Assembly (NCBI GenBank): GCA_944320495.1
Contig: CALUHR010000003.1
Span: 139,313 to 203,312 of the forward strand
Source of the DNA: Candidatus Methanomethylophilaceae archaeon
GTDB lineage: Archaea; Thermoplasmatota; Thermoplasmata; Methanomassiliicoccales; Methanomethylophilaceae
DNA: 64,000 nt
Direction of reading: 5' to 3'
In this document: positions 2,558 through 52,321 of the stretch, piece after piece
How positions within the stretch are numbered: position 1 is the stretch's first letter
Layout of the letters: the number at the start of each line of letters is the position of its first letter
Notes under the pieces: generated by a model
Database searches by the model: none
What the model was told of the DNA's origin: nothing
Seen by the model: the letters and a program-made list of their open reading frames with translations, nothing else
Program-made: the position numbers and the translations under genes

Positions 2558-2988
2558 CTCAGGCGGGCCACATCACGGTGGTCCACGGGAACCTCACCGT
2601 GGACGTCCCCCGCAGGCTGTTCAGGGGACCGGACTGCGAGATAGACGAGGAGGCCGCCAGACCATTCAGGGACATGGTCAGGGCCAGGTACCCGTGGGTC
2701 TCCGAGAGCTCCATGGACGTCCTGATGAGCAAGGCCCGCAAGGAGATGATCCGCGTCATCGACGAGGAGACCGGAGGCAGGAGCCACAGCTCCAACCTCG
2801 CCCAGCAGGGCAAGCTCGACGAGGCGATTGCCCACATGAGGCTCCACATAGAGCAGGACCCAGAGGATGCGGACTCGTGGTACGCCCTCGGGAACCTGCT
2901 CTGCCAGGCCGGAAGGACCGACGAGGGATACAGGGCGTTCAACAGGGGACGCGAGCTCGCTCAGAAGGCCCAGAGAAGAGGTCGTTGA
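2554..2988 (+). CDS. TPR-repeat protein
   Basis: C-terminal TPR-like segment (DEAIAH...DPEDADSWYALGNLLCQAGRTDEG). ATGA overlap with the pyrK stop. Confidence 0.75.
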   Translation: MTQAGHITVVHGNLTVDVPRRLFRGPDCEIDEEAARPFRDMVRARYPWVSESSMDVLMSKARKEMIRVIDEETGGRSHSSNLAQQGKLDEAIAHMRLHIEQDPEDADSWYALGNLLCQAGRTDEGYRAFNRGRELAQKAQRRGR

Positions 2989-3799
2989 TCGCTTCGACGA
3001 CCTCCGGGACCGTGGCGCCCCACGGAACGCGCACGACGTCTCCGTCGCGCTCGTGACCCTGCTTCACCTTGCAGCATTTCACTATCGTCCTCTCCCCCGG
3101 AACGACGTAGTCCGCAGGGCAGACGTTTATGAACACGGGAACGTCGGAGCCGTACAGCTCACGGTAGATCCTGCGGGACAGATGGCATCCTATCAGCGTG
3201 ACCTCGCCGTCGACCTCGGGCGCATCGTCCAGGAAGAGGAACGGACGGTCCGCGGTGAGATGGGAGACCCTGCACGGGAACATGACGATGGGCGTGAACA
3301 CATCCGACACACGGTCGGCCATGTCTATGATGCGGTCCTCGGGGATTATTGGATGCTCCACGAAACCGGATGCGAGCGCCCTGCGGACGAGAACCCCGAG
3401 CTTCGAGGGCGACGGGGGCACGTTGTCCACCACGACGAGGCTCTGCGGCTCCAGGTCCTTCACGTAGCTTATGTGCGAGAACATCCCGCGGACCACCACG
3501 GCCTTGCCCGGATGCCTCGCCTGCACCTCGGCCATGGCCGGGAGGTTGAGGACATCCAGGTCCGGGATCTCCTCGAAAACCGTGTCTTCGGGCATTGACA
3601 CGATCTCATAGCCGTCCAGATCCCTGAAGAGACCTGTGCCGGGATGCTTGCGGAGCTCCACCACGGCGTATTCGTCCCCGTTCCTGAGGACAAGAGCCTC
3701 CGTGCGGACGTATGACCTCCAGCCGTCCATCAGGGACGCAACGGATTCGCGGGTCAGCGGCACATCCACATCCTTCATGGAGACATCCTTGCAGTGCAT
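2957..3799 (-). CDS. Conserved hypothetical protein with Cys motifs (resembles DUF7714-type proteins)
   Basis: Likely start MHCKDVS. Motifs FPC, IGCHLS, NVCP and KCCK. First in-frame CGA at 2957-2959; the standard-code stop is at 2939. Confidence 0.7.
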
Positions 3800-3874
3800 C
3801 AGCCCTCGATGCGGGAGCCAGTATAAAGGGGTGGCCTCAACGATTATATAGAACTGATGAATCGGGTGATTCAA

Positions 3875-3948
3875 GTCGGGGTACCACAGCGGCCATGGGG
3901 CGGACTGCAGATCCGTTTATGGGGGTTCAACTCCCTCCCCCGACTCCA
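3875..3948 (+). tRNA. tRNA-Cys (GCA)
   Basis: Acceptor GTCGGGG/CCCCGAC, anticodon arm GCGGA-CTGCAGA-TCCGT, T-loop TTCAACT, U73 discriminator and encoded CCA. TTATATA at 3844-3850. Confidence 0.95.
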
Positions 3949-4004
3949 TACAATTTATGAGAATTGGTGTTTCGTTCCCGGTCCTATTGGACCGGGAGTT
4001 GGGT

Positions 4005-4490
4005 TCAGTCCTCGCCCTCCTCGTCGTCCTCGCCGAGCATCAGACGGACCATGAACTCGTCCGATGTCTCACCGAAGGCCTCTATGAGGGCGTCGTCCTC
4101 CACATACATGCCGTAGGCGGTGCCGTCGTAGGACACGAACACGGAGGCGGCGAAGGGCTCGCCGTCGTACTCCTTGTCGAGATACTCGTCTATCTCGTCG
4201 TTACGGTCGTCGATGGCCTCGTAGACCTCGTCCATGCACTCCTCCTCGAACATCTCCTCCAGGGGGTAGGCCCCCGGATCGACGTAGAAGTCGTCGAACT
4301 CTGGATAGTCGTACTGGACCATGAGCGCCCTGGACCCTACTGCATCCGCGAACTTCAGCACCGAGTAGATGTCGTTGGAACCGACCTGCACCGGTCCGGT
4401 CATCGGTTCGAGGGCACCAGCCACCTCGAACACCGGGATGTCCGCTCTCGCCCTGATATCCTCCATCGTCGGTATGACGCTCTGCTTCAT
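4005..4490 (-). CDS. Highly acidic hypothetical protein
   Basis: 161-aa ORF with host-like codon usage, rich in D/E. Confidence 0.7.
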   Translation of the reverse strand: MKQSVIPTMEDIRARADIPVFEVAGALEPMTGPVQVGSNDIYSVLKFADAVGSRALMVQYDYPEFDDFYVDPGAYPLEEMFEEECMDEVYEAIDDRNDEIDEYLDKEYDGEPFAASVFVSYDGTAYGMYVEDDALIEAFGETSDEFMVRLMLGEDDEEGED

Positions 4491-4659
4491 GGATTTGGAA
4501 TCTCATCCCAGACGTATAATTGTACCCTCTATGGGCCAGCCACAAGACACCTGGCATGTGCCAGACGTACGATTCCCGATGCTTGCGCCCTGTGACCGGA
4601 CATACGCGGCGAAGCAAAGCTATATAAAAGGCATTTAAATAGCCCGATTCGGTGCTTAG

Positions 4660-5208
4660 ATGGCAAAGATGAACATCGAGAATGTGGTCGCCTCTACCTA
4701 TCTCGGCCAGGAGCTCGACCTCAACAGGATTGAGGAGGCTCTGGAGGGCGCCGAATACAACCCTCAGCAGTTCCCCGGACTCGTCTACAGGCTCAAGGAG
4801 CCCAAGACCGCTACCCTGATCTTCAGGAGCGGAAAGGTCGTCTGCACGGGAGCCAAGTGCAGGGACGACGTCAAGGTCGCAATCTCGAAGGTGGCCAAGG
4901 ATCTCGAGAAGGCCGATGTCCACATCACCATCGAACCCAAGATCGAGGTGCAGAACATCGTCGCATCCTCCGACCTCGAGCAGGAGATCAACCTCAACAC
5001 GGTCGCCATCACACTCGGTCTGGAGAAGGTCGAGTACGAGCCCGAGCAGTTCCCCGGACTCGTCTACAGGCTGGACGACCCCAAGGTCGTCGTCCTGCTC
5101 TTCGGATCCGGCAAGATGGTCTGCACCGGCGCGAAGGTCCCCGAGGACGTCACCCGCGCCGTAGACAAGATCGCCGCGGAGCTCAGGGCCGCCAGCCTGA
5201 TGAGCTGA
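4660..5208 (+). CDS. tbp: TATA-box binding protein
   Basis: Two direct repeats: NVVAS/NIVAS, EY(N/E)P(Q/E)QFPGLVYRL, F(R/G)SGK(V/M)VCTGAK. TTTAAATA at 4634-4641. Confidence 0.98.
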   Translation: MAKMNIENVVASTYLGQELDLNRIEEALEGAEYNPQQFPGLVYRLKEPKTATLIFRSGKVVCTGAKCRDDVKVAISKVAKDLEKADVHITIEPKIEVQNIVASSDLEQEINLNTVAITLGLEKVEYEPEQFPGLVYRLDDPKVVVLLFGSGKMVCTGAKVPEDVTRAVDKIAAELRAASLMS

Positions 5209-5213
5209 ACCGA

Positions 5214-5250
5214 GGGCGCCGGAAGGCGTCCTCCGGGAAAACACCCTTAC
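5214..5250 (+). terminator. Hairpin plus AAAACACCCTTAC tail after tbp
   Basis: GGGCGCC-GGAA-GGCGTCC stem followed by an A/C/T-rich tail. Confidence 0.55.
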
Positions 5251-5651
5251 TCCTTCTTCCCAACTATCGCTTCAGGATCCGTCCACGCATATCCCGAATC
5301 ATGCAGGATGTGCAGGGATTCACCGAACCTCCCCTCCTTGACGAGGACGTAGTCAGTGTCGTAAGTCGAGACGACGAAGATCGCTATGCCGGCATCCGCG
5401 AGGACGCGCGATATCCCCGCCAGGACTCCGACCATCGAGAATTCGAGCTGTCCCGCAATCCTGAACGCCCTCCATCCGTCGTCGCGCTCCACTGTATTTC
5501 CAGGAACCATGTCGGTTGGACAGACCACTGAGGTCTCGTCGTCCGTCCTGCCGATGAACAGCGGCTCCGAATCCGGATCCACCTGCGACAGGTCCGCGAC
5601 CTTGCACACCGAGAGGGCCTGAGGCAGAGGCTGGATGGTCAGACCAGTCAT
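5247..5651 (-). CDS. ACT-domain protein (CASTOR/DUF2241-like)
   Basis: RTDDETSVVC, GWRAFRIAGQLEFSMVGVLA, IFVVSTYDTDYVLVK. Confidence 0.85.
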   Translation of the reverse strand: MTGLTIQPLPQALSVCKVADLSQVDPDSEPLFIGRTDDETSVVCPTDMVPGNTVERDDGWRAFRIAGQLEFSMVGVLAGISRVLADAGIAIFVVSTYDTDYVLVKEGRFGESLHILHDSGYAWTDPEAIVGKKE

Positions 5652-6031
5652 TGGATCACGACGACGGTGTCTGCGATCGCCCTCTTGAGCTCCTTGAGGG
5701 CCTGATGGGTGACCTTCTCCTCCTTGACGGAGGGGCCGATCTCCCGGAGGTACTTCGCGTAGAGCTTCGGCGATATGTCCTTGGCGGAGGCCAGCACGAG
5801 CAGATCCTCCTCGTCCCCCGTGTCCAGGGAGTCGATGTCCCCACCGTAATAGGCAGCGGCCATCCTGTAGAAGCGTATGTCGGTGTTGAGGAACTCCGCG
5901 ATGTCCAGGAAATCCGCCGAGTTATCCGGCTCCTCGAAGGCACGCATTATGAACTTCTCGCGCTCGGAGAGCTTCCGGTCCGCCCCTGTGGAAAATCTAT
6001 CGGCCAAATCCCTCCTCTCTACTCTTATCAT
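5648..6031 (-). CDS. Hypothetical protein
   Basis: Start placed at MIRVERRD. The longer 6097 start in the ORF track crosses an in-frame CGA in AT-richer sequence. Confidence 0.6.
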   Translation of the reverse strand: MIRVERRDLADRFSTGADRKLSEREKFIMRAFEEPDNSADFLDIAEFLNTDIRFYRMAAAYYGGDIDSLDTGDEEDLLVLASAKDISPKLYAKYLREIGPSVKEEKVTHQALKELKRAIADTVVVIQ

Positions 6032-6093
6032 GGTATCACACTGAATCTTCGATCCATTCCATCGGTGAATGTCTATCCGCATCCTCCGACCGA

Positions 6094-7366: not shown

Positions 7367-7414
7367 ACGAATCCTGATAGATATGCGAATATATATGAGT
7401 ATTCGATTGCTTAT

Positions 7415-11835: not shown

Positions 11836-12720
11836 TCAGGGACCCATGGACGTTATCGGAACGACGCAGACGCCGTCCGGACGCCTGTACGCGTACCTGG
11901 TCATGCCGCATACCACACACAGGACCGACGGCGGGGTTCTCTCCTTCCTGAAGAACTCCTCCATCCTTTTCAGGTTCTCCGCCGCAGCATCGATCTGCCC
12001 CGCCCCGAGTTTGATCTCGAATGCGCCCCATCTGCCGTCCTCGGCCTCCACCACCGCATCGATCTCCCTCCCACGGCCGTCGCGGTAATGGAAGAGCCTG
12101 CCGCCCTCATGTTCCGCGTATATCTGGAGGTCATGTTCGCAGAGTGCCTCGAACAGGAATCTCGTGGTTCTGAGGTCGTTCCTGAGCATCTGGGCGTTGA
12201 GCCTCATGGCCGCCACAGCAAGTGACACGTCTGTCAGATGACGCTTCGACTCTTCCCGATGCGGGCATCGGACCTCACATTCGGACTGAAACTGGGCATA
12301 TCATCGATGAGATGCATCCTGTACAGGCAGTTCATGTAGTCCGCGAACGTGTCGTTCGAGATGCTCTCGTTCTCGTACTCCCTCATATCCGATTTGATCT
12401 TCGAGTTCGAAGCCAAGGTGCTCTCGTTGCGGGCCAGCGAGCGGATCAGCATCGACATCTTCCGTTCGTCACGGCTCCTGCCGTCCATACGGGCCGCGTC
12501 CTCCGTAGCATTGTCCACGTACGCTCTGGCCAACATGGAGGGATACCCTCGGGATCCAAGTGCACCGGGCCAGCCCCCGCGAATCGGCATGGTTCTCTGC
12601 GGTCCATGTCTTACCGCACCAGCGTGGATTCTCGATCGATATTGCCCCGAACGCCTCGAGCATCTCCTCCATCTCCTCGTCGAGAAGTCTGGGTCTGTTT
12701 CCTTTAGGAGTCGGGGTCAT
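11836..12720 (-). pseudogene. Degraded AAA_14/DUF4143 ATPase
   Basis: Three fragments in different frames: RPRLLD...PRWCGKT, GWP...RSLARN...FSPNVRS, and KRHLTD.SL...FHYRD..GREIDAVVE...EIK. Central region deleted; frameshift near 12250. Confidence 0.85.
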
Positions 12721-15857: not shown

Positions 15858-16202
15858 ATGGAAGCATACAAGATCGGCGTCACGGTGCCTCTCGGCACCG
15901 AGCATGAGATGATGGACACCCTCGACGGATACTTCTCCCCGCTCTATCCCGGATACGACCACGTTTACTCGTGGTGGGAGACCGAGGGGAGCTGGAGACC
16001 CCTGGAGGGGTCGCACCCGCACCAGGGGGAGATCGGCAGGATCGAACGCGCCCGCGAGGTGCGCATAGAGTTCGCGGTACATGCCCGGGACGCGCCCGCG
16101 GTGGTCCGCCGCATCGCGGAGGTCCATCCCTTCGAGGAACCCGCGATAGACGTGATCCCGCTGATCCCGTGGAAGGACGTCGCTGTGCTGGACGGTAGTT
16201 GA
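15858..16202 (+). CDS. Stand-alone PII/CutA-like domain (YqfO/Nif3 insert-like)
   Basis: YKIGVTVP...G.WRPLEGS.P..GEIG.IE...E.RIEF...HPFEEPAIDVIPL. Confidence 0.75.
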   Translation: MEAYKIGVTVPLGTEHEMMDTLDGYFSPLYPGYDHVYSWWETEGSWRPLEGSHPHQGEIGRIERAREVRIEFAVHARDAPAVVRRIAEVHPFEEPAIDVIPLIPWKDVAVLDGS

Positions 16203-16740
16203 ACAGGTTGTCGAAGGACTTCTGCATCCTGTGGATCTTGAGGCTCTGCTTCCTGTACGCGAGCTCCCCGTCGTCGATCAGTCCCATGGCGTTGTACCTG
16301 TCCAGGACCGCGAAGGCACCGTCGTAGTCGCCGTCGACGCCGACCATGATGTCGATTAGCCTGTTCCTGCATGAGAGCCTGCCCTCGGGCGGGAACGATG
16401 CGGAGACGGCTGGATACAGATCCAGATTCCTCAGGCACATGGCCTTGGCGTCGGCGAACCTGTCGGAGCCGAAGAGGCCCTCGATGAGACCCTCCGTCGC
16501 CCTGAACCTGGAGACGTCGTCGAGCTCGGCTGCCTCGAGGAACTCCCCAGCTGTCACGGCGAGTTTGTAGTTGTGGTCGTCGACCGCGCGGGACATCAGG
16601 TCCGTGAGGAATCCGAGCTGGGAGGACGTGTCTATGCCGTCAACGTACCTGCGAACCCTGACCCTGTCCTGGGAGGACAGGCCGGAGTACCATCCGTCAA
16701 GCCCCGCCTGGGTGACCTGAGAGGGGATCTCATCTGCCAT
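16180..16740 (-). CDS. Hypothetical helical (TPR-like) protein
   Basis: Host-like codons up to ...NLFNYRPAQ, then CGA at 16180-16182. The standard-code ORF continues to 15880, antisense over most of the neighbouring gene. Confidence 0.7.
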
Positions 16741-29678: not shown

Positions 29679-30605
29679 ATGCCGGTCAAGATCCCGGACG
29701 ACCTGCCGGCAGCGGCCGTGCTGGAATCCGAGAACATATTCGTGATGTCCGCCAGGAGGGCGGACACCCAGGACATCCGCCCGCTGGAGATCCTCATCCT
29801 GAACCTCATGCCCACCAAGGTCGAGACCGAGATCCAGATCCTCAGGTGCCTGAGCAACAGCCCGCTCCAGACGAACGTCACGCTGCTCCAGATGTCCTCT
29901 CACGAATCGAAGAACACCTCCGCGGAGTACCTGGAACGCTTCTACAAGACCTTCGACGACGTCAGAGAGATGAAGTTCGACGGGATGATCATCACCGGGG
30001 CCCCCCTCGAATCGATAGAATACGAGGACGTGGACTACTGGCCGGAGTTCTGCGAGATCATGGACTGGACGCTCACCAACGTCTGCTCCACCCTCTACAT
30101 CTGCTGGGGCGCCCTCGCCGGGCTGTACTACCACTACGGGATACCGAAGCACTCCATGGACTCGAAGGTCTCAGGGATCTTCGAGCACCGCGTGCTCATA
30201 CCGAACGAGCCCATAGTCAGAGGCTTCGACGACCGCTTCTTCATGCCTCAGTCGAGGCACTCGGAGGTCAGGGCGGAGGACATCGCGGCGAACCCGCATC
30301 TGCACATCATCTGCGCCTCCGAGGACTCCGGCGTCGCCGTGGTCCAGTCGGAGATGAACCAGACGTTCATCACGGGACATCTGGAGTATGATGCCGCGAC
30401 GCTGTCGTACGAGTACGAGAGGGACCTGAACGCCGGCAAGAACCCGCACGTGCCGGACAACTACTTCGAGGACGACGACCCGCACAAAGACCCGGTGGTC
30501 AGGTGGAGGGCCCATGCCACGCTCTTCTACACCAACTGGCTCAACTACTGCGTGTACCAGGAGACCCCGTACGACATCGACGAGATCGGCAGGCGCCGAT
30601 CGTGA
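29679..30605 (+). CDS. metA: MetA-family homoserine O-acyltransferase, predicted acetyltransferase
   Basis: [22 protein letters not shown] (Glu at the acyl-specificity position), ICWGA, GHLEYD. Confidence 0.92.
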
Positions 30606-30727: not shown

Positions 30728-31861
30728 TCGCTGGCTGACCACCCTCGGGTTCACGAGCTTCCCGACGAGGGCGTCCCTGACGAACATGTTTATGCCCGAG
30801 TAGTCGCCGTCCGAATCCAGGAGCTTCTGGACCTCGTCGGCTATGTGTGTGAACACCTCGCGGAAGATCCTGCATGAGTCCCCGTCGGTGTTCTCGAGGC
30901 CTACCTCGTGGTAGGCGTCCATGCTGCACCCTCCGTTGCAGAACCTGTAGATGGGACACGAGGCGCACTTCTCCCTGCGGGCGACGGAACCCGCCAGGAT
31001 CCTACGGAAGCCCTCAGAATGGAAGGCCTCGTCGAGGCTGGAGATGGAATTCACATTGCCCATGCAGAACTCTGGCGGGCAGGCCTTGGCACACGGGTAT
31101 ATCGAACCGTCGGGGTTGACGCAGACCCACTTGGTGAGACAGGATGTGTGGGCGCAGTCCGAGGGCGTGGGATCGCCCAGATAGTTGAGGACGTAGAGGT
31201 AGTGCGGGATCAGGGGGACCTTGCTGCCGGCGTCATGGAGCCATGTGTCGAAGGCCTCTATGCTGCCCCTGATGTACTCGTCCGGATCCGGGACGGTGCC
31301 GTTGCATCTGGCGCATCCCGCCGGAATCACCGGGGACATGGAGATGTTCGTCCCCCTGTCGCGATAGTACTCGTAGATCTCCCTCTGCTTCAGCGCCGTC
31401 TCGCGGGAGATTGTGGCGCTGACGGAGTACTTGTTATCCTTGTCGGATAGCATCGAGATGGCCTTCTCGGGATCCAGCTCCCTCAGAACATTGTTGTAGG
31501 GACCTTCGCACGACACGCCGACGTTGATCATCTTCTCGCGGCAGTATGCCATGAGACGGCGGTTGAGGAGCGTCCCGTTGGTCTGTATGGTGTTCCCCAC
31601 ACGGAAGGAGGACTTTCCGAAGTGCTTCTCCTCCAGCTCGATGGCCTTCTTGTAGAAAGACATCGGGACGGTGAGCGGCTCCCCGCCGTGCCATATGAAC
31701 CAGGCCGCCTGGTACTCGGTGGCGACCATGCCCATGAGACGGTCCAGCGTCTCAAGGCTCATCTCTCCCCGGACGCGCTCGTCCGGGGCATGATAGCAAT
31801 GGCTGCAGGATTCGTTGCAGAAAAGGGTCGGTTTTATGACGACCGATATGTACGGCTTCAT
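30728..31861 (-). CDS. Radical SAM/SPASM-domain protein (anSME-like, probable peptide maturase)
   Basis: CNESCSHC, WHGGEPL, QTNGTL; SPASM CAHTSC...YPC...CASC.....CNGGC...C. Ends NPRVVSQ-CGA at 30728-30730. The standard-code ORF runs through the terminator into metA, to 30545. Confidence 0.9.
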
Positions 31862-32315: not shown

Positions 32316-32417
32316 ATGGACGACAGGACGCTCGGATACATCCTGATCGCGGCGGTCTTCGCCGTGGCACTGTATGCCTCGTTCCTCATGGCCCGGCGGA
32401 TCCCGCCCAAGGAGCGA
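32316..32417 (+). CDS. 33-aa single-TM small protein
   Basis: MDDRTLGYILIAAVFAVALYASFLMARRIPPKE, then CGA. A gene only if CGA is a stop; otherwise it reads out of frame across the DUF5685 gene. Confidence 0.55.
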
Positions 32418-32472: not shown

Positions 32473-33381
32473 ATGTTCGGATACACCACCCCAGCTTACG
32501 GAAGGCTCTCCCCGACCGACAACCGCACCTACCGCAGGTACTACTGCGAGGGATGCCATCAGCTCAGGGACGGCTACGGCCTCACCGGGACCGGGACGGT
32601 GAACTACGACATGACGTTCAACACCATCCTCCTCGAGGGGCTGGTCTGCGACTGCCCCGACTTCGGGCCCACGACCCGCAGGATCTGCGTACTAGACTCC
32701 CCCAAGGCCGACTCCAGGCTTATGCACGAGATGGCCGCCTACACCCTCATACTCACGAAATGGGAGCTCTACGACGACGAGACCGACATGCCGTCGATAA
32801 AGACGAAGCTCATCTCCCTGACTCTGAACCGCGCCATACAGAAGGCCGTCTCCGAGTTCCCGGAGTACGACAGGATGGTCGGGGAGGGATTCATGCGCCT
32901 CCGCGACATGGAGCTGGCGGGATGCAGGGACGCTCTCTCCATGGGAAGGGAGTTCGGCAGGGGCCTGACGGGACCGCTCGAGGGCATCGCCGGCGACTTC
33001 TACACGGAGGACCTGGGCGACGTCTTCACCCAGCTGACCGCCGCGGTGTACGTCATGGATACGATAGACGACCTGGACGACGACTTCATGGACGGTACCT
33101 ACAACCCGCTGCTCCCCGAGACGGGATACGTCAACGCGCGCACCCTCGTCGACAGGGACGTCATGAGGTTCACGTCCCTCGTGTCCGAGGCGGTGGGATC
33201 CCTCCAGTCCGCCTACTCCAAGGTGCGCCCCTCCATGCGCGGGAACGTCTCCCTCTGCGACAACATCGTCTACTACGGCATACCGGAATCGGCCAAGCGC
33301 GTCATAATGGGCGATGCGAAGGCCAAGGCCAGCGTCAAGAACATCCTGTCGAACAGGAAGGACAGGCTGGCATCGGAATGA
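32473..33381 (+). CDS. DUF5685-like protein with DDxxD motifs
   Basis: MFGY..P, YCEGC..L...YG, NYDM.F, WELYDDETD, YVMDTIDDLDDD..G.YNPL. Confidence 0.8.
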   Translation: MFGYTTPAYGRLSPTDNRTYRRYYCEGCHQLRDGYGLTGTGTVNYDMTFNTILLEGLVCDCPDFGPTTRRICVLDSPKADSRLMHEMAAYTLILTKWELYDDETDMPSIKTKLISLTLNRAIQKAVSEFPEYDRMVGEGFMRLRDMELAGCRDALSMGREFGRGLTGPLEGIAGDFYTEDLGDVFTQLTAAVYVMDTIDDLDDDFMDGTYNPLLPETGYVNARTLVDRDVMRFTSLVSEAVGSLQSAYSKVRPSMRGNVSLCDNIVYYGIPESAKRVIMGDAKAKASVKNILSNRKDRLASE

Positions 33382-33629: not shown

Positions 33630-34331
33630 TTATCGGTTTCCGTCGGCCGTGAGACGGTCCAGCATCCATGACATCCCGCGCGCCATCCTGCCGGCCGGAT
33701 CGGTGAAGTGGTTGCCGGGATTCATCTCCAGTACCACATCGGACACGTTCGGATCGCTCCCGTACGCCGTCCTGACGGATCTTATAGCATCGCCGACCGA
33801 TGCCATCACCGGGTTCCTCGCCTTCTCCTCCTTGGTCCCGAGGCTCAGATACACGTATGAACCCTCAGGGGCGCCGCGTCCGGCCGCGTACTCGGTCCAT
33901 CCCGGATACCATACGGACGGGGAGCATGCCACCGCCCCTCTGAACAGGCCGGTCTCGTGGAACGCCCAGAGGGAGAACAGGCCAGCCAGCGAGTATCCGC
34001 ATACGGCGAGAGGGACATCGTCCCCCGCCTCCAGAGCGTCCCTCGCCCGAGGGACCCATTCGTCCCTCAGACGCTCGAGGGTCTCCCCTCCGCCTCCCGT
34101 GAAAGCCCTCGCTCCCATGACGGGTTCGGATGACCAGGGCGTGAGCCCCGAATCCCAGTCCCCCACCCTGCATTCGACGATCGCGAAGCGCGGATCCGTC
34201 GCAGACAGCCTCACCTTCCGGATCACATCGTCCGCGATGCCCGCCTCATGATCCCCGGTCATCCAGAACAGCACCGCGTCGGGACCCGGGTCCCCCGTGA
34301 TGCGGATGTCGTCCGCCCAGACTCCGTCCAT
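33630..34331 (-). CDS. Alpha/beta hydrolase (esterase, IroE-like)
   Basis: GYSLAGLF nucleophile elbow, SPSVW, YLSLG.KE, NPGNHF. Ends AAC CGA TAA. Confidence 0.85.
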   Translation of the reverse strand: MDGVWADDIRITGDPGPDAVLFWMTGDHEAGIADDVIRKVRLSATDPRFAIVECRVGDWDSGLTPWSSEPVMGARAFTGGGGETLERLRDEWVPRARDALEAGDDVPLAVCGYSLAGLFSLWAFHETGLFRGAVACSPSVWYPGWTEYAAGRGAPEGSYVYLSLGTKEEKARNPVMASVGDAIRSVRTAYGSDPNVSDVVLEMNPGNHFTDPAGRMARGMSWMLDRLTADGNR

Positions 34332-34388: not shown

Positions 34389-34955
34389 ATGGTCGTCAGG
34401 GTAGCGTACATGGGAATCCCGGGCTCCAACTCCGAGCAGGCGGCGACTGAGCTCGCCGGCGCCATGGGCTGGGACGTCTTCGTACTCATTCCTAAGGAGG
34501 ACTCCAGGAACACTGTTGCAGCCCTCGATTCCGGGGAGGCGGACTACGGTGTCGTCGCATCCCGCAACGTCACCGCCGGACCCGTAGAGGAGACTGAGAG
34601 GTCCCTCGAGGGGAGGGGTGACATCGAGATCCTCAGGGCCCTCTGGCTGCCCATCCACCACTGCGTCTTCGTTAAGCATCCCGGGGTGAGCGTCAGACGC
34701 GTCGCCTCCCACATCCAGGCCCTCCTGCAGACGAAGGAGCACCTCAATATGCTCTATCCGGACTCCGACAGGGTCGAGGTATCCGACACGGCCGTCGCGG
34801 CCGAGATGCTCTCGGACGGCAGGCTCCCCGAGGACACCGCGGTGGTCTGCCGCCGCAACGCAGGGGAGATGTTCAGGCTCCACCTCGTCCACGAGAACAT
34901 CGAGGACATGGAGGGGAACATGACGGAGTTCGAACTCCTGAGGCTCAGACGATGA
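34389..34955 (+). CDS. pheA: Prephenate dehydratase catalytic domain (no ACT domain)
   Basis: VAYMGIPGSNSEQA, LPIHHC, SHIQAL.Q, DTA.AA, NIED..GNMT.F. Ends AGA CGA TGA. Confidence 0.8.
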   Translation: MVVRVAYMGIPGSNSEQAATELAGAMGWDVFVLIPKEDSRNTVAALDSGEADYGVVASRNVTAGPVEETERSLEGRGDIEILRALWLPIHHCVFVKHPGVSVRRVASHIQALLQTKEHLNMLYPDSDRVEVSDTAVAAEMLSDGRLPEDTAVVCRRNAGEMFRLHLVHENIEDMEGNMTEFELLRLRR

Positions 34956-35488
34956 TCGCCGAACAGATAGAGAAGGACGCCCGCCGTCTGGACGAGATCA
35001 TCGCCGGATACAACAAAGAGGCGAACCGCGCCAAGCAGTCCAGGGATGAGTTCCACAGACGCGCCTCCGAGCTCGCGGACCGCAGGGACAAGCTCCAGAA
35101 GAAGGCCAAGTCCCTCTCCGCGGAGGCTGCCGTCTACAAAGCTCGCAGGGACGACGCCAACCTCACCGCCAAGGAATGCCGCGCCCGCAGGGACGAGTGG
35201 AACGACCGCGGGGCCAGAATGCGCGCGTCCGGAGGCCTCGGCGACATCGGCGAGTGCAAATCGCAGGCGAACAGCTGGCACCAGAAGGCGGTCAAGGCCT
35301 CCGAGGACGCCAACACCGCCCACGAGAAGATGCATCAGCTCTACGACGAGGCGGACAGGCTTAGGGCGGAGGCGCAGAAGTGCCACGAACAGTACCTCGA
35401 CTGCAAAAGGGGCGCCGACGCGGAGCACACGAGATACATCCAGGCCGTCAGGAGCATAGAGCGCGTGAGGGAGAACCTCCCCGATCGA
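34952..35488 (+). CDS. Archaeal coiled-coil protein (COG1340-like)
   Basis: Heptad-rich R/K/E sequence. Ends RENLPD-CGA at 35486-35488; the standard-code stop is at 35638. Confidence 0.75.
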
Positions 35489-36036
35489 GGGCGCAGCATC
35501 ACGTCCCCGCGCCTTATCGCCATGAAACGGTACTCGCGCATCCTCCCGGTCTTCGGGTCCGGGAGCTCGAGGATGCCTGTCTCCCTGAAGTTCGATTTCT
35601 CGAGACATCTGCCGGAAGCCTCGTTCTCGGTATCGTGACGGGCCTGGATCCACTCGTAGCTGGTGGTGTCGAACACATAGTTCACCACCGCCCTCAGGGC
35701 CTCGGTCATGTAACCGCGGTCCCAGTACCGCTGAGAGAGGCAGTATCCTATCTCACAGTAGCCCTTCTCCGGATGCTCCCTCACCACGGTTATGCTGCCT
35801 ATCGGCTCGTCGCTCCCGCGCAGCGTTATGCACCAGTCCATGGTGCCGCTCGCGTATTCTGACACCCACTCGGCTATCGTCCGGCGGCTCACCTCCGGAT
35901 CTGGATGGGTCTCCCACGACAGGAATCTGGTGACGTCCGGGTCGGACATCCAGTTCCTGAACGCGGCCTCGGCATCGTCCTCCCTGAACCTCCTCAGTTG
36001 GAGGCGCTCGGTCAGGAGGCGCGCCGTACCCCTCAT
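35485..36036 (-). CDS. GNAT N-acetyltransferase (RimJ/RimL-like)
   Basis: TERLQLRRF, EIGYCL..RYW.RGYMTEAL, N.ASGRCLEK. Ends at CGA 35485-35487, giving 183 aa. The standard-code stop is at 35341. Confidence 0.9.
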
Positions 36037-36171: not shown

Positions 36172-36678
36172 TCGCACCCGGGGCTCGGTACCGGGGCTCC
36201 TGCGATGGATTATCCCCCGGACGACGCTGTACGGGATGTCCATGGACAAGGATATGTCCAGGCATCCGCGGCCTCTGCGGTACTCCCTCATGACGTCGTC
36301 CTCCATCAGCATGGACATCTCCCTCGGAGGTATCACGACCTCCGGCTCGATGTCCCACAGACGGGTTCCGCAGAACGGGCAGCGCTTCGGCAAATGGGAG
36401 CTCTTGGAGTCCCAGGAGACGCCGCACCTCAGGCACCTGTACGACTTCAGGGGGACGTTCCACTGATGGGATCCGCAGGACGGGCAGCGCTTGGGCTTGC
36501 CGTCATGGGAGTTCCATGTGTGGCCGCATCTTACGCAGGTGACCTTCAGGTCCGGATTGTTCCATTTGACCGAACGGCAGCGTGGGCAACGCTTGGGTGG
36601 CTGTCCCCTGCGGGGCATCCACTCATAGGAGCACCTGTGACACACCAATCTGGATTCTGGGGCGAACTGTGGATGCAT
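36172..36678 (-). CDS. Triple zinc-ribbon repeat protein with a C-terminal HTH-like segment
   Basis: Three copies of CxRC.x.W...PKRCPxC.S/T..W. Ends EPRV-CGA at 36172-36174; the standard-code stop is at 36076. Confidence 0.8.
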
Positions 36679-36775: not shown

Positions 36776-37816
36776 TCACCATCCAAGATTGAATGCGATG
36801 TAGACAGACATGTACACTTCTGCCCACTTGGGTCTGCGCATCATCGCGTAGGCTCCGCGGGCGAGCGAGTACCCCTTGCGGAAAGGCCCCATGGCGTCGG
36901 CGATCTCCTCCGGCCCCCATGACGCGAACGTGTCGTGCGCGCCCATGAAGTGGGGACTGAACATCGGGTTGCGGGACACCCAGTGCTGGTACCTCTCGAG
37001 CCTGCCGTCTGCCATCGCCCTGGCCGCCTCCCTTCCGGATAGGAGCGCAGCGCCTATGCCTCCGAAGCACAGGGGGTTGGCGAGGCATGCGGCGTCACCC
37101 GCGATTGCGCAGCACCCGTCCACGACCCTCTCCTGGACGCCGAACGGCAGGTCCCTGGCGCCCCAGTCCACGATCCCCTCCACCTCGGACGGGTCTGTGT
37201 GCCCCCTCGGGAACCCGATGGACACTTTTCCGGGGCCGGAGGGGAAGCGCCAGCCGTAGAACCCGTCCCCGTATCCTCCGACGGTGAACGAGAGCACGTC
37301 CTCCTCGCCCTCGGCTATGCAGTTGAATACCTGCAGCCTCCTCGTCGGACCGGTGCCGAAGACGTCTCTCCGAACCGCCGAATGCGCACCGTCGGCACCT
37401 ATCAGACCGCGACAGCGGATCCTGCGTCCGTCGGTGAGCTCCAGGGTGTATCCGACGTCGTCCGTCCCAACGGAGCGGACGGACCCGCGGATGATGTCGG
37501 CATCACAGCCGTCCATGAGCTCCGACAGCATCAACGGGCGGTCTACGACCATGCCGCCGACCGGGATGTCGACGGAGATCTCGTCGGAGAACGCTATGCG
37601 GATCGTGTCCACCCTGCGGACGCAGCCGCTGGGCCTCCAGCCCAGCTTCCCGAACGTCCTGTCGCTGACCGCCTCCCCGCAAATCCTGTGGTAGCGGCCG
37701 AAGCCCTCGTCGTGGAGGCGCTCGATGCACGCGACGGAGATGCCCCTCCCGGACAGCTCCCTGACCGCGGACGCACCGGCGGGACCGGATCCCACCACCG
37801 CGACGTCGTACGTCAT
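36776..37816 (-). CDS. Geranylgeranyl reductase-like FAD oxidoreductase
   Basis: DVAVVGSGPAG, ICGEAV, DR..L, GADG..S.VR, YGW.FP, GDAA...NP..FGGI. Confidence 0.85.
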   Translation of the reverse strand: MTYDVAVVGSGPAGASAVRELSGRGISVACIERLHDEGFGRYHRICGEAVSDRTFGKLGWRPSGCVRRVDTIRIAFSDEISVDIPVGGMVVDRPLMLSELMDGCDADIIRGSVRSVGTDDVGYTLELTDGRRIRCRGLIGADGAHSAVRRDVFGTGPTRRLQVFNCIAEGEEDVLSFTVGGYGDGFYGWRFPSGPGKVSIGFPRGHTDPSEVEGIVDWGARDLPFGVQERVVDGCCAIAGDAACLANPLCFGGIGAALLSGREAARAMADGRLERYQHWVSRNPMFSPHFMGAHDTFASWGPEEIADAMGPFRKGYSLARGAYAMMRRPKWAEVYMSVYIAFNLGW

Positions 37817-42951: not shown

Positions 42952-42977
42952 CTTGATTTCTGAAAAATTAAAACGGC

Positions 42978-44920: not shown

Positions 44921-44998
44921 GGACGGGTGGCCTAGTCTGGATATGGCGGCAGCCTCCTAAGCTGCAAGCCGGGGGTTCGAATCCCCTCCCGTTCGCCA
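44921..44998 (+). tRNA. tRNA-Arg (CCT)
   Basis: Acceptor GGACGGG/CCCGTTC, arm GCAGC-CTCCTAA-GCTGC, GTTCGAATC, encoded CCA. TTATAT at 44889. Confidence 0.96.
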
Positions 44999-45427
44999 TT
45001 TATCCCATCATATTGCGACCAGCGTGAGTTCTGCACCCTCAATCGCTACGAACAAGGATTCATCGTCACGCATGTACGCACAATGCTGGCAACACGCACC
45101 TTAGTACAACCGAGGACGGCATTGTGCATTGAGATTCCTGGATCAAGCTCATTGGGATCGACCAGACGGTAGTCGCCGAAAGTAACCTCTCTGACAAACA
45201 CCGCGACATTCCCGGCCCCATCATTTAGCCGTGACAGAAGAGAGGAATCGAAGTGCCAGACTGCGCAAGTAGGACACGCCCTGCCGCATCCCCATAGAAT
45301 ATGTGTCTCAATATAGACAACATATGTCACATCCTAACACATCTGGTCGTAGACAAACGCATTGTCGGATTCCTATTATATGCCATATCGAGGGATAGCC
45401 AGATAACCAGAACATCCGGTTGGTATA

Positions 45428-48410: not shown

Positions 48411-48537
48411 ACAAACCGAGGGGGCGACCCCTCATTCCAAATTATCCCACATTTTACAATAGATCGTAGACAGCACATCCGGAAAACCGCTAGGAATCGA
48501 TGGCCGGGTCTTGTGACCCGGCACGATTTGGATGGTT

Positions 48538-49224: not shown

Positions 49225-49322
49225 GCGGAAACAATCGCCTTCGGGGTATATTATCCTGTCTCAAACTGGACAGAACAAAGTAAACCGTTCAGAAAAATGA
49301 ACAGAATGTCCCGAACGGAGAA

Positions 49323-49979
49323 TCAGTGGGAACCAGACGACTCCTCGTTCCCGATCTTCTTCATCATCTCGAAGGCGGTCTCGCTGTAGATGTCGGCACC
49401 GATCTTGTCGGCGAACGCCTGCGTGACCGGGGTTCCGCCGACCATGACAACGACACCGTTCCTGATGTCATTTTCCTGCAGATTGTCGATGACGTCCTTG
49501 AGGACCATCATGGTCGTCGTCATCAGAGACGACATCCCGCAGTATTCGGCCCCGTTCTTGATCTCCTTGATGAAACTCGTGGCCGGTACATCCCTCCCCA
49601 TATCATGGACCTCATATCCCGCAATCCTCAGGAGCACCGTGCAGATGTTCTTGCCGATGTCGTGTGTATCGCCCTCGACGGTTCCGATCACGACGATCTT
49701 GTTCTTGGGAGCGGAGACCTCATCTGATTCGAGCTGAGGCATGATGAGCTCCATAGCGCTCTCGATACCCGCCGAGGTCATCAGGATCTGCGGAAGGAAG
49801 ATCTTTCCCCTGTCGAAGAGGATACCGACCTCGCGCATGCAGATCTGGATGGAGTTGATGAGTGTCACGGCGTCCACACCGTTGTCGAGGTAGTCGGCGA
49901 CCACCCTCTTGACGTCGGCATCGGAGCCACCCATCAGCACCTTCTTCAGTTCCTTGAGATCAGGTCCATTCTCCGCCAT
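49323..49979 (-). CDS. Methyltransferase cognate corrinoid protein
   Basis: B12-binding DTHDIGKNI (DxHxxG), IFLPQI, SSLMTTTM, VMVGG.PVT...A..IGAD. Confidence 0.92.
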   Translation of the reverse strand: MAENGPDLKELKKVLMGGSDADVKRVVADYLDNGVDAVTLINSIQICMREVGILFDRGKIFLPQILMTSAGIESAMELIMPQLESDEVSAPKNKIVVIGTVEGDTHDIGKNICTVLLRIAGYEVHDMGRDVPATSFIKEIKNGAEYCGMSSLMTTTMMVLKDVIDNLQENDIRNGVVVMVGGTPVTQAFADKIGADIYSETAFEMMKKIGNEESSGSH

Positions 49980-50103
49980 TTCATCACCAGGGAAACTTTA
50001 TCCGCTCTTCAAATCTGATATAATACCACTAAGCGAAGGGCATATACAATACTTGCTCGAAGTGTCGCATATCTCTGGCCGACGCCCGAGGTGATACGTA
50101 CCG

Positions 50104-50937
50104 TCACTTCTTTTTCTTCTTCCTCTCCTTGAAGGGCTCCTCGAAGTATATGTCCAGGAACTTATCCAGCTTCTTTTCGGCGTCCCCCTCCTTCCTCTCG
50201 GAGGGCCTCTTGGCGGTCCACACCCGGGAGTAGTTCATGGACGCATCCATCAGCTGCTCGATGTAGGACAGCACGGGCTGTTCCATCCAGAATTTCACCG
50301 CTTTGGAGACGCGGTCGCGACCCTCCTTGTTCAGCCTCATTTTGATCTTGTTGGCCAGGAAGGGCATGTACTCTACGAAGAAGCCCATCTCCTCTTCGGC
50401 CCTCTTCGCCTCGCCGGGAAGCGTGGGTAGCCTGTCCTGGAACCGCACGAACACATCGTGCGCCTCGTTGAGCAGCTTGACCATATCGCTCAGATCCGGA
50501 TAGACCTTGAACGATTCGAAGGTGACGTATACATACTCGGAGAACAGCCTGTGCAGCTGTCTCTTGGTCACGGCCTCCGGGATGGCGTTGACGTACATCC
50601 CCATCACATCCTCCATCAGGTCCCTCTCGGTGAGGACCGATGCAAGATCGGCGAGACCGTTGCGGTTGTAGAACTCCGAGTCGGGAAGGTGGCTGATGAC
50701 ACAGTCGCGCATGGCCTGGAGCATCTCCCTGTACTCCCCGTCCGTCGGCTGGCCGTTGCTCTTGACGAATGCCCTCCAAACGTTGGTAGCTTCGGAGAAA
50801 TTGTTCCTCTTCATGACCTGGATGCCGCCTTCGAGACTGCGACTGGCGGCGCTTCCGGGCATCGGAGCACCGCACTTGGTGCAGAATTCGGGCTTCTCCC
50901 CCAGGATCAGCTTCCCACAGCAGACACATTTTGCCAT
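50104..50937 (-). CDS. Zinc-ribbon-containing hypothetical protein
   Basis: N-terminal CVCCG...FCTKCG followed by a helical body. Confidence 0.75.
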   Translation of the reverse strand: MAKCVCCGKLILGEKPEFCTKCGAPMPGSAASRSLEGGIQVMKRNNFSEATNVWRAFVKSNGQPTDGEYREMLQAMRDCVISHLPDSEFYNRNGLADLASVLTERDLMEDVMGMYVNAIPEAVTKRQLHRLFSEYVYVTFESFKVYPDLSDMVKLLNEAHDVFVRFQDRLPTLPGEAKRAEEEMGFFVEYMPFLANKIKMRLNKEGRDRVSKAVKFWMEQPVLSYIEQLMDASMNYSRVWTAKRPSERKEGDAEKKLDKFLDIYFEEPFKERKKKKK

Positions 50938-51106
50938 TGGTTCACACCTGTCCTCCCGCGGGTCCGACGGACTCGGCGATGGTCGTACGAACCGACGCCG
51001 GGGATGACGCTCCTGCACGCATGTACCCCCTCACGGAAACTGACGGTCAATGGTACCACCCGCTTAAAAGGTTGCTACTGGCACTTCTTCGTTTTAGGAG
51101 GTTTTC

Positions 51107-51126
51107 GGGCGGGGAGGACCCCGCCC
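51107..51126 (-). terminator. Hairpin just downstream of the argD CGA codon
   Basis: 8-bp stem GGGCGGGG-TCCT-CCCCGCCC followed by GAAAACCTCCT on the minus strand. Confidence 0.7.
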
Positions 51127-51139
51127 GCGGGCATCGCCC

Positions 51140-52321
51140 TCGGAGCTGCTCCAACACCTCCCTCAGGAGGCCGGTGAACACATCCTTCTGCGCATCCGTG
51201 AGGATTAGCGGGGGTATGAGACGGATTGTCCCTCCATGGGCGACGTTTATCAGGACGCCGTTCTCGCGACAGTACCTCTGGACGTGGGCGGCCGTCTCCT
51301 TGGAGTCCATCTCCACCCCGATGATGAGCCCGCATCCGCGGACCTCCCTAATCCTTGGGGAGTCGATGGCCTTCAGATCGGCCATCCAGCGGGCGCCCAT
51401 CTCCTTGACATGGGGCACGATCCCATCGCGCTTCATGATGTCGATGGTCGCGCATCCTGCGGCGCACACCAGCGGGTTCCCTCCGAACGTGGTGCCATGA
51501 GACCCGGGCGTCATCACCTTGGAGATCTCATCGGTGGAGTTCACCGCACCGATCGGCACACCTCCGCCGAGGGCCTTCGCCATGGTCATGATGTCTGGAA
51601 CGACACCGTAGTTCTGTATGCCGTACCATTCGCCGGTGCGGCCTATCCCGGTCTGCACCTCGTCGGTGATCATTAGCGTACCGTTGTCGGTGCACAGGTC
51701 GCGGACGCCCTTGAAGAACTCGACGGTGGCCGTGTGGACGCCGCTCTCCCCCTGTATCGGTTCTACGATGAGCGCTGCGACGTCCCGTGTCATGAGCTCC
51801 TTCACCGATTCCAGGTCACCGAAGCGGAAATACCCGTACGAATGGGCGATAAGCGGCTCAAAGGACCTCTGGATGGACTCCTGGCCCGTGGCGCCCATGG
51901 CGGCGGACGTTCTCCCGTGGAAACCGTCGAAGGCCGCGATGACCTTGGAGCGTCCTGTGTAGCGGACCGCCAGCTTCAGTGCCCCTTCGTTGGCCTCCGC
52001 CCCACTGTTGACGAACAGCGTGCGGTCCATGCCGTCGGGCGTGATCGATGCGACCCTCTCGGCCAGATCCGCCTGCTCCCCCACGTAGTAGAGGTTGGAG
52101 ACGTGAGCCATCTTGGCTGCCTGCGCCTGGACCGCCGCGACCCAGTCTGGATGCGCGTATCCGAGAGCGTTGACGGCTATGCCGGCCACCAGGTCGAGGT
52201 ACTCGCGCCCATCGCTCCCGTGGAGGTAGCAGCCGCTGCCGTGTGTAAAGGACAGCGGTATGCGGCCGTAGTTCTGGAACAGATAACGGTCGCTCTTCTC
52301 CTTGACTGATTCGAAACCCAT
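51140..52321 (-). CDS. argD: Acetylornithine aminotransferase
   Basis: YLDLVAGIAVNALG, NSGAEANE, FHGRT, EPIQGESG, DEVQTG.GRTG, MAKALGGG, HGTTFGGNP. Ends LREVLEQL-CGA (393 aa). The standard-code stop is at 51047. Confidence 0.95.

Follow-up and report, generated by a model that had tools for sequence, protein, structure and literature searches.

Does the codon CGA, which stands for arginine in the standard code, bring translation to an end in Candidatus Methanomethylophilaceae? The question arises from a 64,000-nt stretch of contig CALUHR010000003.1 (the window), in which the first-pass annotation listed nine genes that seemed to finish at an in-frame CGA and concluded that CGA terminates translation here. 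All nine triplets are present in the sequence, with coordinates, strands and frames as listed, and seven of them (2957−, 16180−, 30728−, 35486+, 35485−, 36172− and 51140−) held up as gene ends: the genes upstream have true coding potential by codon score, and the Pfam matches in the supported CGA-ended genes stop shortly 5′ of the CGA. Our gene calls reproduced the lengths that had been singled out as family-typical for the ArgD-like (393 aa), GNAT (183 aa) and radical SAM/SPASM (377 aa) products, and bore out two absences noted by eye, with no internal CGA in the window genes and no TAG at the end of any of the 58 genes called in the window. We found four further CGA gene ends that had not been listed (12246−, 30597+, 33633− and 34950+). 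These four of the 11 window CGA ends have a standard stop 0 to 3 codons downstream, and because of that nearby stop they are not diagnostic alone; 12246− is moreover a weak case that may represent a gene fragment. Neighbouring-gene overlap in the window fell from 161 to 106 nt when genes were ended at CGA.

Window genes ending at CGA, with positions counted from the first base of the window
Gene	Coordinates	Strand	Length (aa)	CGA	Downstream of the CGA
DUF7714 gene	2957..3799	−	280	2957-2959	standard TGA 5 codons on
Short DUF4143-like ORF	12246..12536	−	96	12246-12248	TGA 3 codons on
186-aa gene	16180..16740	−	186	16180-16182	standard-code ORF runs 99 codons further
Homoserine O-acyltransferase (MetA/HTS)	29679..30599	+	306	30597-30599	TGA one codon on
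Radical SAM/SPASM gene	30728..31861	−	377	30728-30730	standard ORF runs 60 codons further, to TAG
Gene with weak esterase match	33633..34331	−	232	33633-33635	TAA directly after (tandem CGA-TAA)
Prephenate dehydratase domain gene	34389..34952	+	187	34950-34952	CGA lies within CGATGA
Coiled-coil gene (DUF7121-like)	34952..35488	+	178	35486-35488	standard ORF runs 49 codons further
GNAT acetyltransferase	35485..36036	−	183	35485-35487	
Zinc-ribbon protein	36172..36618	−	148	36172-36174	tail of 31 codons
Acetylornithine-type class III aminotransferase (ArgD-like)	51140..52321	−	393	51140-51142	tail of 30 codons

The other two listed sites were rejected. The CGA at 32415..32417 (+) closes a 60-codon ORF that scores 0.12 and sits between divergent genes, and the long ORF downstream of it is an other-frame overlap of the DUF5685 gene at 32473-33381 (+). 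The CGA at 33373..33375 (−) follows a 98-codon ORF scoring −0.11, and the remainder of that ORF is antisense to the same DUF5685 gene, whose own stop is TGA. We regard both as shadow ORFs, unsupported as gene ends.

Among the supported genes, codon scores fell across the CGA in the DUF7714 gene (from 0.46 before to −0.98 after), in the 186-aa gene (1.05 over the 40 codons preceding the CGA vs −1.33 in the tail) and in the ArgD-like gene (0.50 before, −0.47 after); the tail of the 186-aa gene contains seven more CGAs, and that of the ArgD-like gene two more. A Pfam search returned no family match for the 186-aa gene. The DUF7714 profile was matched over 6-277 of 280 and the match stops 5 residues short of the CGA, HTS was matched completely in the MetA/HTS gene (1-298 of 298), and PDT was matched over 1-176 of 181 in the prephenate dehydratase gene. 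In the GNAT gene the Acetyltransf_3 match (1-138 of 138) finishes at residue 151, and in the ArgD-like gene the Aminotran_3 match (profile 5-402 of 403) finishes at residue 389, the CGA being codon 394. The Radical_SAM and SPASM domains finish well upstream of the CGA of their gene, and its standard-code extension enters the neighbouring gene. The prephenate dehydratase and coiled-coil genes overlap by a single base: the CGA shares its A with the ATG that opens the coiled-coil gene. At the convergent ends of the coiled-coil and GNAT genes, both CGAs lie within one palindrome, TCGA.

Genome-wide, the pattern goes far past chance expectation, and CGA was the top enrichment outlier of all codons over the final 20 codons of ORFs, at 11-fold. 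With CGA masked, the codon score of 112 ORFs stayed at +0.5 as far as the codon that precedes the first late CGA, then dropped to −0.84 right after it. No drop was seen at any of the 15 control codons tested, and the TGA neighbours AGA, GGA, TCA, TTA, TGT and TGG showed no coding step. In a GC-matched outgroup family, which served as a method control, CGA is in ordinary use, at 2.6 per 1000 coding codons, and the score again showed no step. The coding end was a CGA in 220-254 of 1624 genes, and the tails past it, non-coding in composition, extended for at least 100 codons in 42 genes. At the sequence level, comparison shows that coding stops exactly at CGA in ~15-20% of genes.

These ends also differ from other CGAs in their surroundings. 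The base at +4 is U at 60% of terminal CGAs vs 16% of the CGAs that follow in frame in the tails (p ~2e-32); beyond this and a weak preference for G or C at +5, no conserved base is evident between −3 and +7. Terminal CGAs overlap the start of a coding ORF downstream, as CGATG, in 18.6% of cases (later tail CGAs, 1%), about the rate of TGA stop-start overlaps (ATGA and TGATG together, 19.5%), and a backup stop stands at the very next codon in 8.6% of CGA-ended vs 2.8% of TGA-ended genes (p = 3e-4). These three features (U at +4, CGATG overlaps and next-codon backup stops) show that selection acts on CGA in the role of gene end. The top codon-bias decile contains 5 CGA-ended vs 108 TGA-ended genes, and we interpret this scarcity among strongly codon-biased genes, together with the next-codon backup stops, as signs of leakiness.

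In same-genus genomes, the codon aligned with the CGA of CGA-ended genes was TGA in 16 cases, CGA in 3 and a sense codon in 4 (TGA or CGA in 19/23), and the codon aligned with the stop of TGA-ended controls was TGA in 146, TAA in 4, CGA in 1 and sense in 23 (TGA, CGA or TAA in 151/174), the kin genomes behind these and all other orthologue counts being non-independent samples. Each of the six TGA neighbours named above stood opposite orthologous stops only 0-2 times. For the radical SAM/SPASM gene, 26 same-genus orthologues had TGA in 18, CGA in 4 and sense in 4 (22/26 TGA or CGA). The first stop-like codon of the MetA orthologues in the genus was TGA (5) or CGA (3) at offset 0 and TGA (6) at +2, the 2 others having TAA at +2 or TGA at −1. 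The closely similar genome G018 (94% identical across the stretch) conserves the CGA at 35486+ and has TGA at the identical position to the CGA at 36172−; relative to the genome studied here (G000), TGA and CGA are swapped at two sites. Comparison shows that terminal CGAs occupy positions at which TGA stands in relatives. Mid-gene, the CGA frequency is 0.7-0.9 per 1000, vs ~34 per 1000 in the five frames of the two strands that are non-coding. An alignment of 81,140 columns contained 66 outgroup CGAs at positions occupied by Arg in both genomes; of the 6 in-frame CGAs that G000 has within aligned blocks, only 1 pairs with an outgroup Arg. These comparisons show a purge of CGA from conserved arginine positions. 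The trait is found again in dozens of assemblies made independently by different projects, single-contig genomes included, and CGA ends are even commoner (27%) in the genus COG_1.

The proposal that CGA terminates translation here therefore passed all comparative tests that were run, but not in the form of a clean reassignment. Internal CGAs at conserved arginines of core genes, which the first-pass annotation had counted as evidence against its own reading, do exist in part: the aRF1 gene of this genome has an in-frame CGA at conserved residue R88, and ribosomal protein L18e keeps a conserved-Arg CGA in 25/26 same-genus loci, G000's own among them. The core of the proposal otherwise stands. 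Flavodoxin likewise has a CGA at a conserved Arg. Termination at CGA is thus not obligatory, and the conserved-Arg CGAs in core genes indicate a leaky or dual-meaning stop. At the few read-through sites the base at +4 is mostly C or G. The suggestion that tRNA-Arg(UCG) had been lost was refuted, as a covariance model recovered its gene in all genomes to which a sensitive search was applied. In this genus the tRNA has an odd anticodon arm: one subclade has a 31-39 mismatch, the other a 27-43 mismatch together with C33. In other genera with the CGA-end trait, COG_1 among them, the arm is canonical.

The genome has a single aRF1 gene. An altered aRF1 had also been suggested, and here the NIKS, YxCxxxF and GTS-type motifs proved canonical, but a few family-specific substitutions are found elsewhere in the protein. 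The residue at the YxC position is Arg, which aligns with L123 of yeast eRF1; the same 'YRC' residue is present in outgroup families where CGA means Arg, so it cannot suffice for CGA termination. Within the family, aRF1 genes contain at least one CGA in 78/78 cases and exactly one in 63, at N-domain residue R88, R35, R21, R133, R60 or R37 and nearly always in the first 133 codons. In other families of the order, aRF1 has 2-4 CGAs scattered along the gene.

We consider it probable that CGA serves as a fourth stop codon, a leaky one, for which aRF1 and tRNA-Arg(UCG) compete. The single aRF1 would accept CGA as a near-cognate of UGA, upon which the ribosome would terminate; the Arg at the YxC position may matter here, as the aligned Arg in yeast eRF1 raises termination at CGA. 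The retained tRNA-Arg(UCG) would compete at the same codon, and context would set the outcome, with U at +4 leading to termination and C or G at most sites that are read through. Full-length aRF1 could then be made only if termination at its own N-terminal CGA were not too efficient, a possible feedback loop resembling the in-frame UGA of prfB. Bacterial RF2 (prfB) is autoregulated via that UGA and completed by a +1 frameshift. The two cases share an early, clade-conserved in-frame codon that the gene's own product would read as a stop, but aRF1 would be completed by tRNA-Arg(UCG) read-through and its regulation is presumptive. On balance we favour extending this scheme to the Methanomethylophilaceae, a family of gut methanogens, as a whole: CGA would be a context-dependent stop, tRNA-Arg(UCG) would persist to serve a small number of programmed read-through sites, and aRF1 would sense its own activity through one in-frame CGA.

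CGA could instead be an effectively unread, or 'hungry', codon, at which ribosomes stall, the rescue factors aPelota/ABCE1 split them and peptidyl-tRNA hydrolase releases the peptide, with no recognition by aRF1. The canonical aRF1 recognition motifs, the odd tRNA-Arg(UCG) anticodon arm in this genus and the avoidance of CGA ends by strongly codon-biased genes are all in line with such a mechanism. However, genera with a canonical arm, such as COG_1, have more CGA ends rather than fewer, and CGATG overlaps as common as those of TGA point to normal termination followed by re-initiation. Ribosome rescue at a fifth of genes would also be costly, and the retention of CGA in every aRF1 gene of the family would go unexplained. 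We therefore judge this mechanism unlikely.

Less credible still is C-to-U editing of the mRNA, by which terminal CGAs would become UGA under a standard code. A single C-to-U change does separate the two codons, and the bases that terminal CGAs share, U at +4 and G or C at +5, could form an editing motif. Yet reading frame is known only to the ribosome, which makes editing by a frame-blind enzyme improbable: off-frame CGAs occur at ~34 per 1000 in genes whose unedited proteins match Pfam and outgroup orthologues, the context holds no conserved base beyond the weak bias described, and neither the purging of in-frame CGA alone nor the conserved aRF1 CGA would be accounted for. We also consider it very improbable that CGA is no more than a scarce Arg codon, with translated tails that are stop-loss extensions in a gut symbiont undergoing drift, or that an assembly artefact produced the pattern. 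The tRNA-Arg(UCG) gene is there and Arg is certainly the reading of some CGAs, but the TGA neighbours tested show neither a coding step nor frequent alignment with stops, the tails are long and non-coding, CGA ends bear the marks of selection, and the trait recurs in independent assemblies.

Sense codons have become stops in organelles: AGA/AGG in vertebrate mitochondria, UCA in Scenedesmus and UUA in Thraustochytrium mitochondria (NCBI tables 2, 22 and 23). As here, the sense codon is gone inside genes and present at gene ends. Those genomes are tiny, with a handful of genes, whereas the present case concerns a cellular genome of ~1,600 genes that has kept the cognate tRNA, still reads a few sites as Arg and has the codon inside its release-factor gene. 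If our reading is correct, a cellular genome, as opposed to that of an organelle, would for the first time be seen to have turned a sense codon into a stop. Condylostoma and Blastocrithidia have context-dependent stop/sense codons, and here too one codon would have two meanings set by position or context and by competition between tRNA and release factor; in those eukaryotes, though, standard stops gained sense, whereas in this archaeon a sense codon gained a stop function. A tRNA with a 4-bp anticodon stem has been reported for codes of this type.

We found no published description of this use of CGA. Yeast eRF1/eRF3 terminates at CGA, and the UGA-biased eRF1 variants L123F/R/Y enhance this (Wada and Ito 2018, PMC7379694). 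The codon, the release-factor class and the competition with tRNA-Arg are the same as here, and the aligned aRF1 residue is Arg; in yeast, however, this is low-level misdecoding in reporters, whereas about a fifth of genes here rely on CGA ends. In two hydrothermal-vent archaeal assemblies CGG has been read as Trp and CGA raised as a possible stop (Melnykov 2026, bioRxiv 10.64898/2026.04.02.715157). Those assemblies are likewise archaeal and lack CGA in recognisable domains, but they belong to other organisms, tRNA-Arg(UCG) was not found in them, CGG is reassigned and gene ends were not part of that study; in the present genome CGG encodes Arg as usual, and our tests addressed gene ends directly. 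A code in which all TAG is pyrrolysine has been proposed for Methanomethylophilus and others (Kivenson et al. 2024, bioRxiv 10.1101/2024.09.30.615893); it concerns the same family, but is a stop-to-sense change of TAG, and CGA is unmentioned in that paper. The handing over of TAG to pyrrolysine and the CGA change would fall in the same lineage, and in this genome PylS is present and TAG is almost unused as a stop, ending 17/1624 genes.

The source genome (GCA_944320495.1; 1.77 Mb in 14 contigs, 60% G+C) encodes both McrA and PylS, and its release factor aRF1 shares 91% identity with the Candidatus Methanoprimaticola sp. MG2 factor and 68–92% with those of many Methanomethylophilaceae MAGs. It is therefore the genome of a pyrrolysine-using methanogen of the order Methanomassiliicoccales, which bears out the assignment made in the first-pass annotation. 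Coding potential was measured as a codon-usage log-odds score, trained on the middles of long high-GC3 ORFs with CGA masked throughout. With CGA called as a stop, the window held 58 genes, ending in TGA (44), CGA (11), TAA (3) and, as had been noted by eye, never in TAG. Nine CGA gene ends had been proposed in the first-pass annotation; all nine triplets lie where it placed them and seven are among the eleven called CGA ends, while the other two were rejected, as the ORFs upstream of them score poorly and overlap a real DUF5685 gene (see table). Pfam domains stop just before the CGA in every annotated case among the seven, and the window's tails, that is, the standard-code ORF from a terminal CGA to the next standard stop, have non-coding scores and often contain further CGAs. 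The four additional CGA ends are non-diagnostic taken singly. One of these closes a short ORF whose match covers just the first half of DUF4143 and which may be a gene remnant.

Locations of the features discussed (plain numbers are window positions; G000 is the source genome and C2, C3, C5 and C13 are its contigs)
Feature	Location	Strand	Remark
Called CGA ends proposed earlier	2957, 16180, 30728, 35485, 36172, 51140	−	
Called CGA end proposed earlier	35486	+	
Additional called CGA ends	12246, 33633	−	standard stop within 0–3 codons
Additional called CGA ends	30597, 34950	+	standard stop within 0–3 codons
DUF4143-matching ORF	12246-12536	−	96 aa
Rejected CGA end	32415	+	upstream ORF score 0.12
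Rejected CGA end	33373	−	upstream ORF score −0.11
DUF5685 gene	32473-33381	+	
Gene pair with CGATG overlap	34389-34952 / 34952-35488		
TCGA palindrome	35485-35488		
Gene ending in TGA	36776-37816		CGA in 94%-identical genome
aRF1	G000:C2:85936-87195	−	
NifH-like/NifD-like (cfbC/cfbD)	G000:C5:79781-81964	−	
PdxT/Sel1 (Sel1-repeat protein)	G000:C3:96745-99459	−	
Ribosomal protein L18e	G000:C13:191554-191919	−	
GmhA-like SIS + GmhB-like HAD	G000:C13:193618-194718	−	
tRNA-Arg(UCG)	G000:C13:413317-413390		outside window

Counted genome-wide by relative position, in-frame CGA is scarce in mid-gene and enriched at the 3′ end, in agreement with the proposal. Its frequency in 762 high-GC3 ORFs, each 300 aa or longer, is 0.9 per 1000 mid-ORF versus 9.9 per 1000 over the final 20 codons, the strongest such enrichment of any codon; off-frame CGA stands at 34 per 1000. 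In 112 ORFs whose tails run to 30 codons or more, the codon score holds at about +0.5 through the codon preceding the first second-half CGA and is −0.84 at the very next codon, and no drop was seen at any of the control codons tested. Editing of the mRNA from C to U at terminal CGAs is unlikely to account for this pattern, because purging and gene-end placement affect in-frame CGAs alone, and off-frame CGAs are plentiful, unedited, in codons matching conserved proteins. Shadow ORFs were rejected as the source of the 3′ enrichment, as the signal survived greedy overlap filtering. Assembly errors in the form of random frameshifts or indels would blur the transition ahead of the first CGA and are excluded by the exactness of the step. 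After shadow-ORF removal, 220–254 of 1624 genes end in CGA, 1005 in TGA and 41 in TAA; tails have a median length of 19 codons and exceed 100 codons in 42 genes. TAG ends only 17 of the 1624, and this scarcity, together with PylS, agrees with the all-TAG-as-pyrrolysine code proposed for the family (bioRxiv 10.1101/2024.09.30.615893).

For an orthologous-end test, the 60 residues that precede each putative end were located in 594 kb from three same-genus genomes, the count was limited to alignments reaching the last residue, and the next codon in the relative was scored. At CGA ends this codon was TGA in 16 cases, CGA in 3 and sense in 4, so that the relatives' proteins mostly end where the CGA lies, as had been predicted; at TGA-end controls it was TGA (146), TAA (4), CGA (1) or sense (23). 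The 26 genus orthologues of the window's rSAM gene include 18 with TGA and 4 with CGA. A genome with 94% DNA identity has TGA at site 36172, where the source genome has CGA, and the gene at 36776-37816 shows the opposite arrangement. In a Codetta-like count over 81,140 columns aligned between the source genome and two outgroup genomes, the outgroups used CGA 66 times at shared Arg columns, and only one of the six in-frame source-genome CGAs in aligned blocks stood opposite an outgroup Arg, which indicates that CGA has been purged from such columns. That CGA is a real gene-end signal is strongly supported.

An outgroup family that belongs to the same order and has 58.5% G+C uses CGA at 2.6 per 1000 coding codons and lacks the score step (0.69 to 0.62, n = 52), and none was seen in the low-GC outgroup (the codon model for the low-GC genome, G049, was trained with a looser threshold); the signal is therefore not created by the method. 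ORFs combining a late CGA with the step make up 21% (source genome), 10%, 9% and 4% within the genus. For two representatives of other family genera, archaeon COG_1 and a Methanoplasma MAG, the figures are 27% and 9%, respectively. Three more family members, one titled Methanomethylophilus sp., have 0.13–1.6 coding CGAs per 1000, and CGA gene ends are rare in them. Avoidance of CGA is thus family-wide, and in some lineages its role in ending genes has grown.

Terminal CGAs also carry marks of a functioning stop. U occupies +4 at 60% of them, versus 16% of later in-frame tail CGAs and 23% of all CGA triplets (p ~2e-32). A one-base stop-start overlap is typical of coupled genes, and 41/220 terminal CGAs (18.6%; window example in the table) are of the CGATG form, their ATG starting a coding ORF of 60 codons or more; the frequency of stop-start overlap is 19.5% at TGA ends (ATGA plus TGATG) and 1% at later tail CGAs. 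A standard stop directly follows the terminal codon in 8.6% of CGA-ended versus 2.8% of TGA-ended genes (p = 3e-4). Codon bias, used as an expression proxy, is lower in CGA-ended genes (0.72 versus 0.85; p ~1e-21), and among the 113 genes with the strongest bias only 5 have a CGA end. Together, context, overlaps, backup stops and codon bias fit a working but weaker, leaky terminator, and the most probable reading of this sequence evidence is that CGA serves as a fourth stop codon, a leaky one.

The meaning of CGA is not restricted to stop. Only about 10 in-frame CGAs genome-wide have coding signal on both sides, the clearest being those in aRF1, L18e, a flavodoxin gene and a GmhA-like/GmhB-like junction. 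Internal CGAs at conserved Arg in core genes, which the first-pass annotation had named as refuting termination, do occur in aRF1 and L18e, with CGA purged elsewhere. The aRF1 codon, R88, lies inside Pfam eRF1_1 and aligns to a conserved Arg of the human and haloarchaeal factors. The L18e CGA falls on the basic residue conserved in 'IW[R]DVA' and persists in 25/26 loci of same-genus genomes (source genome included), whereas the codon after it may be GAT or GAC; it looks to be under selection. GmhA-like SIS and GmhB-like HAD domains are encoded in a single frame, with a CGA linking them immediately ahead of the HAD DxD motif; the 40 codons after it contain no start codon. At this junction the codon in relatives is CGA (14), AAG or AGA (7), GCG (1) and TAG or TAA (3), the sort of pattern that programmed read-through would give.

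Loss of tRNA-Arg(UCG), which had been suggested as a mechanism, does not hold. ARAGORN identified the gene in the source genome, and although BLAST gave a hit in only 11/24 genus genomes, a covariance model built from eleven genus copies found a diverged copy in the other subclade and one gene in every genome searched, outgroups included. Comparison of the source-genome copy with those of relatives (L086-L095, L101-L104) revealed a mismatched 31-39 pair (A.A, C.A or U.C) in the anticodon arm of one genus subclade; the other subclade has C33, where U33 is universal, together with a 27-43 mismatch. The arm is canonical in other genera of the family and in an outgroup. Since the arms are canonical in further genera that show the trait, a 4-bp anticodon stem was rejected as a general cause, and the odd arm is at most a local reinforcement.

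A domain-2 search gave a single aRF1 gene and no second paralogue; a weak second match to the aRF1 protein is probably Pelota. Alteration of the codon-reading motifs had also been put forward, but NIKS, YxCxxxF and the GT(S/E) loop are canonical, with no change found family-wide. The loop reads RSTE (Ser for Gly) only in the source genome and in G018, a near-identical same-genus relative, versus RGTE in the rest of the genus; these two have the most CGA gene ends of the genomes examined in the genus sample. Residues specific to the family are Met at the human R68 position (Arg in outgroup families) and His-Gln just before GGQ (Arg-Lys/Met in outgroup families). The x of YxC, which from our alignment and the residue numbering we take to be yeast L123, is Arg in 88/88 sequences of the order, and is insufficient for CGA termination because outgroups share it. 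Yeast eRF1 terminates detectably at CGA in competition with tRNA-Arg, and the UGA-biased L123F/R/Y enhance this (PMC7379694). The comparison suggests that aRF1 may have been predisposed, leaning towards UGA, in a lineage that gave TAG to pyrrolysine.

The aRF1 gene itself has a single CGA, at R88, in 22 genus genomes. Among 78 family genes, 63 have one CGA, 8 have two, 7 have three to five and none has zero; the positions are R88 (45), R35 (26), R133, R37, R21 and R60, confined with few exceptions to the first 133 codons. Other families of the order have CGC, CGT, CGG or AGA at the orthologous codon, and their 2–4 CGAs are dispersed along the gene. A frequency of at most 0.7 CGA per 1000 coding codons would predict about 0.3 per aRF1 gene, and by rough arithmetic over at least six independent placements, retention by chance is very unlikely. 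The base at +4 of the aRF1 CGAs is C or G in 83/104 and U in 18/104. We infer that selection may maintain one read-through-dependent codon early in aRF1 as a prfB-like feedback sensor, whereby the activity of aRF1 would be sensed through its own early CGA and the full-length factor would need read-through.

To our knowledge, code changes in cellular genomes have so far been from stop to sense or amino acid swaps, with sense to stop accepted only for organelles. If true, our reading would make sense-to-stop change possible in a free-living-type genome of ~1,600 genes and offer a living 'ambiguous intermediate' of code evolution, with tRNA and release factor contending at one codon. It would also suggest a feedback loop on an archaeal release factor, of a kind otherwise known to us only for bacterial RF2. 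PylRS/tRNA-Pyl pairs from this family are in wide use for genetic code expansion, so its translation system is directly relevant to biotechnology. No account of CGA acting as a stop in Methanomethylophilaceae turned up in a full-text literature search; a 2026 preprint raises the idea, without a test, for two unrelated vent archaea (bioRxiv 10.64898/2026.04.02.715157).

Public gene calls would hide gene boundaries and carry false C-terminal tails on up to a fifth or more of proteins. Two same-frame pairs with CGA between them, cfbC/cfbD and PdxT/Sel1, are fused in the standard-code ORF, and false fusions of this sort are probably present in public annotations of these genomes. The palindrome CGATCG, a terminal CGA followed by TCG, occurs at 37/220 terminal CGAs genome-wide, and in the window a TCGA palindrome ends two convergent genes, each strand using its own CGA with a 2-nt overlap.
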